Assembly: GCA_036516595.1 (NCBI GenBank)
Contig: DATECE010000090.1
Location: forward strand, 1 to 25,816
From: Minisyncoccota bacterium
GTDB taxonomy: Bacteria; Patescibacteriota; Minisyncoccia; Phycocordibacterales; UBA2100
Reading direction: 5' to 3'
Length of the DNA stretch: 25,816 nt
A program made the position numbers and the translations under genes. This document shows positions 7,054 through 15,670 of the stretch, one piece after another. The notes under the pieces are model-generated. The model saw only the letters and a list, made by a program, of their open reading frames with translations. It did not search any database and had not been told where the DNA came from. Numbering within the stretch: the stretch's first letter is position 1; each line of letters starts with the position of its first letter.

Positions 7054-7254
7054 ATGATACAAAAGTCGATAAAGATACTCCGTTACTCTGTCATGTGCAC
7101 GGCTGCGTTCCTTGCATCGTTTGTAGTCAATTTCTCGTCACCCGCGCACAATTCTACGGATATCCCGAGCATGTTCGCGCCTATCGTACATGCCGATGCG
7201 CCGACGGGGGACGGCGGTGATGACGGTGATGGCGGTAGCGACGGTTGTCCCTGA
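7054..7254 (+). CDS. Candidate RiPP precursor peptide 1 (hydrophobic leader, HADAP motif, Gly/Asp/Ser/Cys tail)
   Basis: 66 aa: basic N-terminus, hydrophobic stretch, ...IVHADAP-TGDGGDDGDGGSDGCP. It shares HADAP and overall layout with the 14322-14543 peptide next to the SagB gene. Confidence 0.7.
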   Translation: MIQKSIKILRYSVMCTAAFLASFVVNFSSPAHNSTDIPSMFAPIVHADAPTGDGGDDGDGGSDGCP

Positions 7255-7259
7255 ATTGT

Positions 7260-8477
7260 ATGGAAACGCACGACACTCCCGAGAACAACGTATCCGAAGG
7301 CGTGCGCATATGGGCCGCGCGCAAGCGGGAATACACTGCAGTCTTGGTAGTCACTCTGGTGCTCGTTTCGGTGTACCTCGGTTCGGAAGTCGCAACGAGG
7401 CAGAGGGAGCGTGCGAGAGAGGCGAATGTCGCGAATCTCAAGGGGGCGATTGAACGATCGCTCGAGTTGCAGTACCAAGGTGACTTCGGGGCATCGGCGC
7501 AAAACGCAGAGTATGCACTTGCTCTGCTCGATGCGACTTCAAGTCTAGAGGCGCAGCGAACGATAACCGTTCTCGCCAACGCACATATTTGGTCCGCCGA
7601 GCTGGACAAGCACCTTGAAGCTGTGGATCTAGCGAAACAGCAACTACGTGACCTGCCAGGATCCCCTCGAAGTCAGGCATTTATCATAAATCGTCTCATC
7701 GGGTATATGACGGCGGCGATGGAGCCCGAGGTCATCGAGAGGGTGTTCACAGGCGAACCCTTCGCAGAACTCTACGATTCAGCGAGCGTCACGGACTCCA
7801 TTTTCAAGAACTTGGCAGGGGAGTCTCTTTCGCGATACCCCACCTTCCTCGCATATGCGTGCGTCGGCATTTGGCACGCCGAGAAGTTGTTCAAGCATTA
7901 CGATGGCATCGAGACTCTCTCGCAGGAAGAGATGCGCGAGGCTGTCTCGGGAGTGCAAGACGCTATTGCGAAAATGAACGGCATCATAGACGAGGAGTTG
8001 AAAGTAGATATCGTATACAAGCAAACAAGGCAAGCGCAATTCGATTACTATCAAGAGTTCCTCCACGGGGCGCTCGCGCTCACAGACCCAGCGTACCTTA
8101 CTGCGATGCAGGAAGCATACGAGCGTGTGCGTTCTGAGGTCGCGGCACAAAAAAATACCGCGGGCAACACGATAGCGCTCCTTGATACGCGCCTCGTATA
8201 CGCCGATTTCGCCTTCTCCACGTATGTAAACGCCGTCGCAGGCGAAAACCGTGCGAATGACGTACAGAGATCTCTGCAGGAGATGATCGACCTCATGACG
8301 GCGAATCCGGAGGCGCATCAGGGTGGCTTTCTTGCGTTCGTGCGTCAAACCGCGCGGAGCGGTCCGAACGGCACAGAGGGGCACGGACGCTGGTACAGCT
8401 ATGGGCGATTTAAGCGCATGGCAGATTTCTACCCACCGTTTAAAGATTTTCTTAATGCCAACGGATGGGGTCTGTAA
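7260..8477 (+). CDS. Single-pass membrane-anchored alpha-helical (TPR-like) hypothetical protein A, paralog of 14549-15670
   Basis: N-terminal TM (AVLVVTLVLVSVYLG) and helical composition. Colinear motif matches to protein B. Start METHDT at 7260, 5 nt after the peptide-1 stop. Confidence 0.8.
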   Translation: METHDTPENNVSEGVRIWAARKREYTAVLVVTLVLVSVYLGSEVATRQRERAREANVANLKGAIERSLELQYQGDFGASAQNAEYALALLDATSSLEAQRTITVLANAHIWSAELDKHLEAVDLAKQQLRDLPGSPRSQAFIINRLIGYMTAAMEPEVIERVFTGEPFAELYDSASVTDSIFKNLAGESLSRYPTFLAYACVGIWHAEKLFKHYDGIETLSQEEMREAVSGVQDAIAKMNGIIDEELKVDIVYKQTRQAQFDYYQEFLHGALALTDPAYLTAMQEAYERVRSEVAAQKNTAGNTIALLDTRLVYADFAFSTYVNAVAGENRANDVQRSLQEMIDLMTANPEAHQGGFLAFVRQTARSGPNGTEGHGRWYSYGRFKRMADFYPPFKDFLNANGWGL

Positions 8478-8522
8478 TGCCCGAAGCCTCTCTGCATATC
8501 GCTGTCGACCCGCTCACGAACA

Positions 8523-13551: not shown

Positions 13552-14325
13552 ATGTATGTTGATTTCTCGGCGCTCTTCCACGCATCTTCAAAAGATTTGA
13601 ACGACAAGGGGCGTGTTTATATCCCACAAGATGCGAGCGCATGGCCGGACGAATGGAAAACGACCTACTACAAATCATATGCGCGCTCCCCGAAGATCCA
13701 GCTCGAGAAGCCTCGTGCGCTCGGGATGACGTTGGACGATATACTGAAAAAGAGGATTTCGACGAGGTCGTTTGCAGGCACACCGGTCGACCTGAAGGCG
13801 CTCTCAGGACTCCTATTTCACTCATGCGGCATCTCAAACGGAGAAAATCATGAGTGGGGGCGCATGTACCCGTCGGGAGGCGCTCGATTTCCCATCGAGA
13901 TATATCCAATCGTATTTGTCGGAGGAAAAGATATTCCGGCTGGCCTTTACCACTACAATGTGAAAGAGCACGCACTAGACGTTTTATGGAAGCGAGCATT
14001 CTCGAAAAAAGAGATTGACGAAATGTTTGTGTATCCGTGGGTAGAGCATGCGTCATTCGCAATCATCATGACCGCGGTTTTTGGCCGCAACCAGATGAAA
14101 TACGGTGAGCGCGGATACCGCTACGTACTGCTCGAGGCGGGGCACATGAGTGAGAATGTGTATTTGGCGGCGACGGCACTCGGTGTTGGATGCTGTGCAA
14201 TGGGTGGGACGCAGGACAAGCAGATTGAGCGGCTGCTCGACATTGATGGTATTACAGAATCTGTTATTCACAGCTTGGTCCTCGGCGAAGTGGGGTCGGC
14301 AAAACGTGCTATTATTCCCGCATGA
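13552..14325 (+). CDS. SagB/ThcOx-family FMN-dependent azoline dehydrogenase (nitroreductase fold)
   Basis: KKRISTRSF, RMYPSGGARFPIEIY, GLYHYNVKEHAL, MKYGERGYRYVLLEAGHMSENVYLAATALG. The KYGERGYRY segment is typical of azole-forming dehydrogenases. Confidence 0.93.
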   Translation: MYVDFSALFHASSKDLNDKGRVYIPQDASAWPDEWKTTYYKSYARSPKIQLEKPRALGMTLDDILKKRISTRSFAGTPVDLKALSGLLFHSCGISNGENHEWGRMYPSGGARFPIEIYPIVFVGGKDIPAGLYHYNVKEHALDVLWKRAFSKKEIDEMFVYPWVEHASFAIIMTAVFGRNQMKYGERGYRYVLLEAGHMSENVYLAATALGVGCCAMGGTQDKQIERLLDIDGITESVIHSLVLGEVGSAKRAIIPA

Positions 14326-14543
14326 TGGTGCACATGCAAGAGTCGTCACGACGCACCGTTCGCTACGTGCTGTACGGGATTGTCGCGGTCCTCGGCTTTA
14401 TCATCGCGTTCTTCGGCTCTGTGCCGCGCAGCGGCTCCCAATTGTTCGGTGAAGATGCTTCGGGTGCAAATACGGCGCACGCGGACGCGCCCGATGCTGG
14501 CAGCTCCCCCGGCACAGGAGGTACGGGAAGTACAGGAAGCTAG
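14322..14543 (+). CDS. Candidate RiPP precursor peptide 2 (TM leader, AHADAP motif, Gly/Ser/Thr core)
   Basis: ATGA overlap with the SagB stop. TM YVLYGIVAVLGFIIAFFG, then ...TAHADAP-DAGSSPGTGGTGSTGS. The start could also be the Met at 14325 or 14334. Confidence 0.75.
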   Translation: MMVHMQESSRRTVRYVLYGIVAVLGFIIAFFGSVPRSGSQLFGEDASGANTAHADAPDAGSSPGTGGTGSTGS

Positions 14544-14548
14544 CGATT

Positions 14549-15670
14549 ATGGGTTCAGAGCAGGGAAATTCAATGTGGAAACCGTGGGTCGTCGCGCTCG
14601 TCCTTTTGTGCGCTGCCGGAATCGGCTACGCAGTCTACAAGTCTTCATTCTTTAGTACGAAACCGACAGCCGCGCAGCTGCTCCAATCCATCCCCGAAGC
14701 AACTATGGCGGGAGATTATGAGCGCGTGCTCCGAGAGTACGAGGCAATACAACAGGCAACCGATGATAAAAATGCTCTCGCACTTGCGACGTGGCGAACG
14801 GGAGTCGCGAAATTCGAACTCTCACAAGAAACAGAGGACTTACTGCAGCACATACGGGAGTTGAAAGAGATTGTGCTCAATCCGGAAGTGAATGCACGCA
14901 CGCGAGGGCTCGTCCTCAGCTCGCTCGCGAGCTTGTACTGCGGCTCCGGCAGAACGCCGGAGGTATTCGGCATCCTCTACGACGGTCCGGTGTTCGGCCA
15001 GTATAAAGCTGAGAACGATCCGAACCTCTCGTCGCGCCATCTACACGAATGGGCCGACACGCTCTACCCAAATCCGAGAAACACAGTCCGCATAGCAAGG
15101 TGGTATGTCGAGGAGACAGTATGGGACAAGTCGATTTCGGATGAGAAGCGTGCAGAATACAAAGGTATCGCCGAAGAGTACCTGCAGCGGGCAGAAGGTG
15201 AAGCGCAGAAAGAAATAGAAAGAGCGCAGACGCGCAATGAGCTCGACGAATACCTTGCGGGAGAGCCGTACACCGCGTATCAATTTTGGCGCATGATGGA
15301 AATTGCCGGCCTCGGACTCGCATTCGGAGAGCCATACAAATCGGAGTACAGAAAAGAATTCGAAAATTTCTTCATCTTCGCGGAAAATCACAAAAATGAC
15401 GCGACGCTCAAGTACCAGCAGTATGCGCACATGTTTTACGCATACTTCCTTTTGAACATCGACGGCGAGGCGGACGCCGCCCGCGAGCAGCTCCTTATCG
15501 CGATGGAGCGAGCCAATCAAGAACCTCGCCCTGGGTCAAACCCGTTCCATCTTTTCATGCGTCACGAGTCCTCGAAGCCCGCATGGGACTTCACCTCGCA
15601 GGTCATGTACGACATGATGCAGCTTTCCCCGGAGTTCAAGGCATTCGTCGAAAGTCTGAGAGATGCTTGA
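14549..15670 (+). CDS. Single-pass membrane-anchored alpha-helical (TPR-like) hypothetical protein B, paralog of 7260-8477
   Basis: TM WVVALVLLCAAGIGYAVY. Starts 5 nt after the peptide-2 stop. Shares colinear motifs with protein A. Confidence 0.8.
   Translation: MGSEQGNSMWKPWVVALVLLCAAGIGYAVYKSSFFSTKPTAAQLLQSIPEATMAGDYERVLREYEAIQQATDDKNALALATWRTGVAKFELSQETEDLLQHIRELKEIVLNPEVNARTRGLVLSSLASLYCGSGRTPEVFGILYDGPVFGQYKAENDPNLSSRHLHEWADTLYPNPRNTVRIARWYVEETVWDKSISDEKRAEYKGIAEEYLQRAEGEAQKEIERAQTRNELDEYLAGEPYTAYQFWRMMEIAGLGLAFGEPYKSEYRKEFENFFIFAENHKNDATLKYQQYAHMFYAYFLLNIDGEADAAREQLLIAMERANQEPRPGSNPFHLFMRHESSKPAWDFTSQVMYDMMQLSPEFKAFVESLRDA

Follow-up and report, generated by a model that had tools for sequence, protein, structure and literature searches.

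Linear azol(in)e-containing peptide (LAP) clusters with a YcaO protein and a nitroreductase have already been reported in 51 Parcubacteria and other candidate phyla radiation (CPR) genomes (Sharrar et al. 2020, PMC7298704). The stretch of DNA analysed here (the window; 25,816 nucleotides (nt), contig C90 of a Minisyncoccota genome) carries a locus that is like LAP/thiazole-oxazole-modified microcin (TOMM) clusters in that genes for a SagD-type YcaO and a SagB-type dehydrogenase adjoin small open reading frames (ORFs) whose products have Gly/Ser/Cys-rich C-terminal tails. However, the locus differs from LAP/TOMM clusters in several ways. As leader, the precursors carry a Sec-type membrane helix and an A-x-A|D motif, and every precursor has its own membrane-anchored partner protein that resembles tetratricopeptide repeat (TPR) proteins. 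Further, the locus lacks a recognised E1-like protein or recognition element (RRE) for peptides that ribosomes synthesize and that are then modified post-translationally (RiPPs), a recognised ATP-binding cassette (ABC) exporter and a recognised protease. The two-gene unit of peptide and partner, called the cassette here, is also present in YcaO-free genomes, and if the class is judged by modifying enzymes nearby, the assignment holds for the window but not for the cassette in general. The window has two cassettes, peptide 1 with partner A and peptide 2 with partner B. We show that A and B are homologous and that peptide and partner are paired across the genus. We tentatively propose, at somewhat less than an even chance, that the partner serves as a platform at the membrane's outer face, dedicated to binding its peptide.

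Three other described systems share features with the cassette. Bufferins are RiPP metallophores modified by multinuclear non-heme iron-dependent oxidases (MNIOs), which have a Sec signal peptide, export by the general pathway, signal-peptidase cleavage, Cys-rich cores and a link to metal stress (PMC11626156). The cassette has a similar Sec-type leader, and the unit containing partner A (the A-type unit) lies beside an ArsR/SmtB-type regulator. Neither MNIO (DUF692) nor DUF2063 domains were found among the window genes, and unlike in bufferins, the motif here is placed 15-26 residues past the helix and the accessory protein, a solenoid anchored in the membrane, comes from an unrelated family. 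LanI bacteriocin-immunity pairs also consist of a peptide gene followed by the gene of a cognate, co-diversifying protein at the outer face of the membrane. However, the two have no known sequence or fold relationship, and the partner here, which is much larger, is held in the membrane by a helix instead of a lipid. Finally, RRNPP receptors (Rap, PlcR) and other peptide-binding TPR superhelices share a right-handed helical-repeat solenoid with the partner. RRNPP proteins are cytoplasmic with helix-turn-helix (HTH) or phosphatase output domains, and their peptide genes are usually downstream, whereas the partner here is membrane-anchored, has no output domain and has its peptide gene upstream. 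In the literature and family libraries that we searched, we found no description of a membrane-helix AHADAP leader, of an obligate TPR-like partner family or of YcaO-optional modular use.

Paralogy and pairing of the two cassettes

The four genes of the two cassettes are:

7054 to 7254, forward strand: peptide 1, 66 amino acids (aa), stop TGA at 7252-7254
7260 to 8477, forward strand: partner A, 405 aa, ATG at 7260, alternative TTG start at 7245
14322 to 14543, forward strand: peptide 2, 73 aa, stop TAG at 14541-14543
14549 to 15670, forward strand: partner B, 373 aa, ATG at 14549

A sequence-only reading of the window had described these genes as a duplicated module in which each peptide with a HADAP motif is followed after exactly 5 nt by a paralogous membrane-anchored protein. 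Both junctions are exact as described (TGA-attgt-ATG for peptide 1/A and TAG-cgatt-ATG for peptide 2/B), and both A and B have a single N-terminal hydrophobic helix. The spacing of exactly 5 nt did not turn out to be special, as relatives show anything between an overlap of peptide and partner by 4 nt (-4) and a gap of about +12 nt. The two 5-nt spacers of the window are typical of the family, and it is the tight coupling that is conserved.

A and B are true but very distant paralogues. A pairwise BLASTP of A against B does not reach significance (best E 0.097), and the short motif matches from which homology had been proposed could therefore be chance on their own. When an A-type alignment of 6 sequences was compared with a B-type alignment of 3 sequences by hhalign, the probability was 96.7% with an E-value of 3.9e-10 over 308 colinear columns. 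All six motif pairs listed earlier fall in register in this alignment (GDF/GDY, PEVIERVFTGEPF/PEVFGILYDGPVF, LSRYP/DTLYP, IWHAE/RWYVE, FLAFVR/FHLFMR and YPPFKDFL/SPEFKAFV). The identity between A and B is 15-17%, and each has a few close relatives in a collection of 5.8 billion proteins. The likeness extends to structure, since AlphaFold2 models of A and B share the same two top cluster representatives in the AlphaFold DB (template modelling score (TM) 0.65-0.80). Peptides 1 and 2 align weakly (E 0.002) and have the family architecture in common. The partner family, which the sequence-only reading did not recognise, is matched by no Pfam or NCBIfam model above cut-off.

The pairing of peptide and partner is near-obligatory across the genus. 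The question of whether homologues of A and B always follow a HADAP-like ORF can be answered with almost always: in the fetched loci, a motif-bearing small ORF with a hydrophobic helix is found directly upstream, on the same strand, of 40 of the 45 non-redundant partner genes. Among the five exceptions, the partner in locus L041 starts 42 nt from the edge of the locus, and in L031 the peptide is present and overlaps the partner. Conversely, about 400 kb of sequence contain 31 such peptides, of which 30 have a partner gene directly downstream, and the lone exception resembles a chance match. In L026 and L056, the peptides upstream of the partners end just past the motif (tails ETVGK and DVPTG), and these shortened peptides may be decaying copies or assembly frameshifts.

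The proposal that the module was duplicated and diverged together holds in part. In a maximum-likelihood tree of 44 partners there are three deep, fully supported clades. A is found in a subclade (support 100/99) of four partners, from the window and from genomes G034, G108 and G078, and the four corresponding peptides all end in Cys-Pro, a clustering that was matched by 0 of 500 label shuffles. B is found in a different deep clade together with the partner of locus L006. Since A and B are in different deep clades and have orthologues elsewhere, the duplication predates the divergence of these species. The sequences thus indicate that the duplication is ancient and not local to the window, contrary to a recent local event. 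They also support that each paralogue kept its own peptide type, so that "diverged together" is best read as ancient co-inheritance of peptide and partner subtypes.

A profile of 8 A- and B-type sequences searched against 1.84 billion proteins found 850 cluster representatives at E <= 1e-3 and 547 at E <= 1e-10. These are 50%-identity clusters from metagenomes, and nearly all are 340-420 aa long. The family is present in 50 of the 116 genomes of the window's genus, with at most three matches per genome. There was no match in 24 other families of the order (one genome each), and 400 genomes of the phylum gave only marginal partial matches outside the genus (E ~1e-6). The marginal matches cover profile positions 1-140, i.e., the first third or so, in ORFs of 176-273 aa, and are not counted as members.

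Architecture of the peptides and their partners

The 26 aligned peptides are built alike: the N-terminus is basic, the membrane helix often has the sequence GGF(F/L)xVLFG, and a linker that varies leads to the consensus VAHADAP and a hypervariable tail. Peptide 1 has a basic N-terminus, a hydrophobic helix, an 18-aa linker and IVHA-DAP followed by the Asp/Gly-rich tail DAPTGDGGDDGDGGSDGCP, and belongs to the subtype with tails ending in Cys-Pro. Peptide 2 has the same architecture, with TAHA-DAP and then the Gly/Ser/Thr tail DAPDAGSSPGTGGTGSTGS, and its start codon overlaps the stop codon of the SagB-type gene (ATGA). In the family motif [AV]-x-A-D-[AV]-P, A47 (position -1) and D48 (+1) are nearly invariant. 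Every peptide listed has Ala at position -1, and with one or two exceptions they have Ala, Val or Thr at position -3, while the residues at position -2 vary and are bulky. Ala(-1) lies 15-26 residues from the helix (median 20). The ordinary signal peptides of the genus, as found in the family of a 122-aa protein encoded next to rplC, end in A-[HY]-A|Q/E. The motif A-x-A|D resembles these ends and therefore looks like a signal peptidase I site, although unusually far from the helix. In 24 of 26 peptides the helix has more Lys and Arg on its N-flank, and in none does it have fewer there, which predicts that the peptides are oriented with the N-terminus inside and the C-terminus outside.

The tails are 17 to 69 residues long and are of several types: Cys/Gly/Ser/Asp-rich, Tyr-rich starting with PYSQASYY, Asp/Gly-rich ending in Cys-Pro, and Gly/Ser/Thr as in peptide 2. 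Strongly Cys/Gly/Ser/Asp-rich tails recall microcin B17. The tail of peptide 2 has 4 Ser and 3 Thr, that of peptide 1 has 1 Cys, 1 Ser and 1 Thr, and strongly Cys/Ser-rich tails are found in many relatives. HADAP was also considered as a general sorting signal and rejected, as [HYFRNS]AD[AV]P after a membrane helix is found only in the two peptides in this genome, which is 74% complete. Likewise, "VHFADASP" in a 679-aa secreted protein of the window is not the same motif; its homologues conserve SSEVxF[AT]D...IVPASCPS. Pfam and NCBIfam searches with peptides and partners gave nothing above cut-off, with matches to EzrA, TPR_21, DUF6338 and YxzE below the curated scores, and the titles and abstracts listed for YxzE had no bearing on the cassette family.

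Partner A consists of an N-terminal membrane helix, a long stalk helix and a TPR-like alpha-solenoid, and partner B has the same fold. The family is thus one of single-pass membrane proteins with a stalk helix and a solenoid of ~330 residues. The AlphaFold2 models (predicted local distance difference test (pLDDT) 85 for A and 95.8 for B) are all-alpha, with a long N-terminal helix and then the solenoid, and by these models the fold is a TPR-like superhelix. Among solved structures, the best VIA-align matches were TPR proteins that bind peptides, namely APPBP2 (Z 15.7), MalT domain III (14.8), LGN (13.1), RapI (12.6) and PlcR-PapR (11.7), as well as subunits of APC within the Z range 15.7-11.7. 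Foldseek returned TPR proteins only (E about 4e-3), and Protein Atlas returned only generic TPR neighbours with scores of at most 0.88. No Pfam TPR model was above gathering score for A or B, 86 members gave single sub-threshold matches only, and the first repeat alone matches the consensus TPR (E 4.8e-5). The cut-off of PF09976, the YfgM-type Sec-associated TPR-like family, was not reached by B (E 0.0036, 17.5 bits vs 25.5); this match spans only the membrane helix and first helices, and PF09976 was matched by 1 of 86 members. The residues G74, K126, S180, P194 and A320 (A numbering) are nearly invariant in 86 partners.

The fold brings to mind peptide signalling, in which the exported peptide would be a signal and the TPR-like partner its surface receptor, as in RRNPP systems. 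The structural likeness to RapI and PlcR-PapR and the co-diversification of the two genes fit such a role, since co-diversifying peptide-receptor gene pairs are typical of signalling systems. However, Pfam and NCBIfam find no HTH, kinase or phosphatase output domain in the partner, its cytoplasmic N-tail is short with the membrane helix starting on average at residue 18, and the Z-scores are at the background of helical-repeat proteins. We therefore regard a signalling role as very improbable.

Regarding topology, Lys and Arg are higher on the N-flank of the partner's membrane helix in 86 of 140 members and lower in 25 of 140, and this bias predicts that the solenoid faces outside. A complex prediction for A and peptide 1, with alignments of 86 and 26 rows, scored 0.02 where the mark was 0.32, and gave no verdict either way. 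By a crude measure, there is no correlation between the linker length of the peptide and how far the first repeat of the partner is from its helix (Spearman -0.31, p 0.15, 23 pairs).

A solenoid predicted outside also fits self-immunity, where the peptide would be a secreted antimicrobial and the partner a surface-anchored, LanI-like protein that sequesters it and protects the producer. The gene order of toxin then immunity, the tight coupling and the one partner per peptide agree with this explanation, and hypervariable cores together with ~850 partner clusters in essentially one genus would be expected in a conflict system. The patchy presence in the genus also speaks for it. On the other hand, the partners (360-400 aa) are much larger than known bacteriocin immunity proteins, and the best-conserved parts of the peptide, the motif and the helix, would be absent from the mature toxin while the partner nonetheless keeps G74, K126, S180 and P194 conserved. 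The ArsR-type link of the A-type unit suggests a stress or metal response and not warfare, the rplC-adjacent cassette is at a fixed chromosomal site with envelope proteins, and orphan immunity genes are not clearly seen. Taken together, we find self-immunity unlikely, though it deserves more weight than a signalling role.

Genomic setting and modifying enzymes

The source genome has 628 kb in 99 contigs and is 74% complete. The genomes of relatives are 0.5-1.7 Mb, and the source is therefore a small-genome, CPR-like bacterium. The metagenome runs in which DNA of the window was detected come from groundwater and soil, with no RNA run listed among them, and several may represent the source sample itself. 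By Pfam and NCBIfam assignments, the peptide island spans 12.5 kb and is flanked by rpsJ (6034-6507) and rplC (19009-19653). In addition to the cassettes, it contains:

6593 to 6985, reverse strand: ArsR/SmtB-type regulator (PF01022, E 5e-16), probable start a Met near 6895, divergent from peptide 1 and A
7011 to 7031, between the ArsR gene and peptide 1: imperfect palindrome with 9-nt arms and a 3-nt spacer, a candidate operator
8523 to 10268, reverse strand: phosphoribosyltransferase domain in fusion with a beta-propeller of the PQQ type, recurrently found next to the cassette
10679 to 11914, reverse strand: membrane-anchored Cys/His-rich protein, 411 aa, without family match, a recurrent cassette neighbour
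11963 to 13510, reverse strand: YcaO (SagD-type) cyclodehydratase (PF02624, E 3.8e-45; TIGR03604, E 2.3e-55)
13537 to 14325, forward strand: SagB-family peptide dehydrogenase (TIGR03605, E 8.9e-42, above curated cut-off)
15674 to 16468, forward strand: membrane-anchored canonical TPR protein, found after the partner gene in most rplC-proximal cassettes
16477 to 18516, forward strand: secreted protein of 679 aa, rich in Cys; its conserved N-terminal motif is SSEVxF[AT]D...IVPASCPS
18520 to 18888, forward strand: 122-aa protein with signal peptide (..TAHA|ETD) and C-terminal membrane anchor, last gene before rplC

The open frame of YcaO extends over 11963-14062 on the reverse strand (699 aa), compared to 514 aa for YcaO of relatives. 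The frame is over-extended because its first ~185-190 codons, the upstream third, overlap the SagB-family gene on the opposite strand. The true start is probably ATG 13492 or TTG 13510, which would give a protein of ~510 aa.

The SagB-family gene is the first gene of the operon containing peptide 2 and B, and peptide 2 is thus in one operon with a SagB-type gene and ~0.8 kb from YcaO. It is plausible that peptide 2 is an azoline substrate. The sequence-only reading assumed that the modifying enzymes between the two copies are shared by both, which is doubtful for the module of A, as the genomes of its closest relatives lack YcaO. No YcaO gene was found in G034 (98% complete) or in G078 (single contig, 97% complete), and these genomes carry two and three cassettes, respectively. 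Cassettes in YcaO-free genomes show that the cassette is not tied to azoline chemistry. Peptide 1 may thus not be a YcaO substrate, and whatever role the partner has would be tied to the peptide leader or export rather than to azoline formation.

The cassette is a self-contained unit that is combined with different chemistries. In G034, G078 and G139, Tyr-rich peptides of the PYSQ type adjoin genes for PP-loop ATPases, an unassigned 213-aa protein and a PAP2 protein. Tyr-rich D[AV]PYSQASYY... peptides have as neighbours a PP-loop ATPase-like protein (353-363 aa, SGGIDS) and a 213-221-aa protein that recur as a pair (L003 8405-10158 and 12893-14646; L049 872-2781; L053 4702-6491). The PP-loop pair may belong to a separate chemistry for modifying peptides that have this leader and partner. 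In three genomes (that of the window, G108 and G078) the A-type unit is found as a divergent ArsR-type regulator with peptide and partner, and in the YcaO-free genomes it goes with such a regulator and not with enzymes. The regulator is highly similar in the three genomes and always divergent from a cassette with a Cys-Pro ending (window 6593-7053; L051 10406-10726; L052 8641-8961). In the window, a gene of the VIT1 iron-transporter family is located at 4960-5676, near the promoter region of the ArsR gene and cassette with its palindrome. These features hint at metal-responsive control of the A-type cassette. In G108, a homologue of the 411-aa Cys/His-rich protein comes directly after the A-type partner, and in G078 the A-type cassette is ~30 kb from the rplC island.

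Neither an E1/ThiF-like (SagC/McbB) protein nor an RRE protein was found in the island by Pfam and NCBIfam sequence searches, and no ABC exporter was recognised there. This raises another explanation for the partner, namely that its solenoid is located in the cytoplasm, replaces the E1-like or RRE protein and holds the precursor for YcaO and SagB or for the PP-loop enzymes. YcaO needs ATP and SagB needs FMN, and both enzymes act in the cytoplasm. A generic leader-binding adaptor would be expected to join different enzyme sets as the cassette does, and the charges flanking the helices of A and B themselves are ambiguous. However, the charge bias across the family points to N-in, C-out for both partner (86 vs 25) and peptide (24 vs 0), and an N-in helix leaves the peptide tail in the cytoplasm only before insertion. 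In addition, the A-type cassette of G078 is away from the island with only the ArsR-type gene and none of the queried enzyme families. Cytoplasmic recognition is accordingly improbable in our view.

In most relatives examined, the island is adjacent to rplC (window; L006, L050, L053-L055, L058-L064, L066-L068), and an operon of peptide, partner, TPR protein, Cys-rich protein and small anchor protein runs straight into rplC in most loci. Wherever rpsJ is in view (window, L003, L006, L053, L068) the island is between rpsJ and rplC, and it therefore splits the usual S10 operon. The homologues of the Cys-rich secreted protein (L006, L050-L068) range from ~260 to 1474 aa and keep an N-terminal block after the membrane helix, F-x-SSEV-x-F-[AT]-D ... 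IVPASCPS-x-PH. On the enzyme side, L006 (1719-3213, reverse strand) and L003 (2004-3562, reverse strand) have an operon with a 435-451-aa multi-pass membrane protein and then a 61-66-aa membrane protein, neither of which has a Pfam match. This pair is absent from the window, where the 411-aa Cys/His-rich protein follows YcaO. Upstream of the island in L003 (47-1558), a 503-aa product has Pfam matches to both integrase (rve) and ribosomal S10; possible reasons are a gene fusion, a wrong gene call or an insertion element beside rpsJ.

The conserved operon could also mean that peptide and partner do not interact directly. They would then be co-transcribed envelope parts, a small acidic membrane protein and a TPR scaffold, both acting with the TPR, Cys-rich and small anchor proteins encoded downstream. 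In that case the peptide would neither be cleaved nor be a natural product. The order from peptide to rplC is kept in most loci, the cassette is present without YcaO, and the conserved GGFxxVLFG in the peptide helix is unusual for a disposable signal peptide. In contrast, the two-way coupling is near-obligatory and includes A-type units that have no downstream envelope genes, and the Cys/Ser-rich cores beside YcaO and SagB in many relatives look like genuine azoline substrates. We give this explanation little credence, about as little as cytoplasmic recognition.

A proposed outer-face platform and its implications

We return to the outer-face platform, which we favour because of the peptide-binding type of fold, the shared predicted location outside, the coupled expression and the independence of particular enzymes, together with one partner per peptide and the co-inherited subtypes. 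One partner per peptide argues for a dedicated role, as a generic export factor would need only one copy. In this model, the first gene would encode a small precursor with a Sec-type N-in membrane helix, a fairly constant linker of 15-26 residues and a hypervariable tail. The second gene, translationally coupled to the first, would give a single-pass protein with its TPR-like solenoid outside. Any cytoplasmic modification would come first, by YcaO and SagB for peptide 2 and by other enzymes elsewhere, followed by Sec-dependent insertion of the peptide into the membrane with the tail outside. Once exposed, the linker, motif and tail would be captured by the solenoid of the peptide's own partner, which would either hold the peptide until it is cut at A-x-A|D, a signal-peptidase-like site, or keep it tethered to the surface.

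Several points weigh against this model. Binding between peptide and partner is itself a proposal from sequence. The solved-structure matches with Z 12-16 are at helical-repeat background, and the fold thus says little about function. The topology is based only on the positive-inside rule, and the flanks of A and B are ambiguous (4/4 and 2/2 Lys/Arg). A site 15-26 residues past the helix is further away than signal peptidase I usually accepts, which makes cleavage uncertain, and no protease was identified in the island. Further, identity among the partners has dropped to 15-20%, whereas motif and helix have stayed conserved, and this does not explain why each peptide should need its own partner. 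Such a need could be explained only if the partner also reads the variable linker or tail.

A broader variant is that the cassette is a modular N-terminal sorting and maturation system, in which the partner would recognise and possibly process Sec-inserted peptides across chemistries and thereby replace both an RRE-type reader and a leader peptidase. K126 and S180 are candidates for such a recognising or processing role. We consider this variant a long shot, well behind the simpler outer-face platform.

Genome mining for RiPP and bacteriocin loci usually starts from the enzymes and from known leader types. The cassette newly defines a precursor family with a Sec-type helix leader and a nearly invariant A-x-A-D-[AV]-P, which is missed by current family libraries, and an obligate partner family of ~850 clusters that has no Pfam or NCBIfam model. 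The pairing of peptide and partner is a robust genomic rule, and since the cassette is combined with different enzyme sets, searches for the partner can reveal new peptide chemistries. If the partner is an immunity protein, it would represent a new immunity fold. If it is instead a leader reader or an outer-face holder, it would represent a new way of recognising or handling precursors in bacteria without the usual RRE proteins. The hosts are groundwater bacteria with very small genomes, in which each retained gene is costly.

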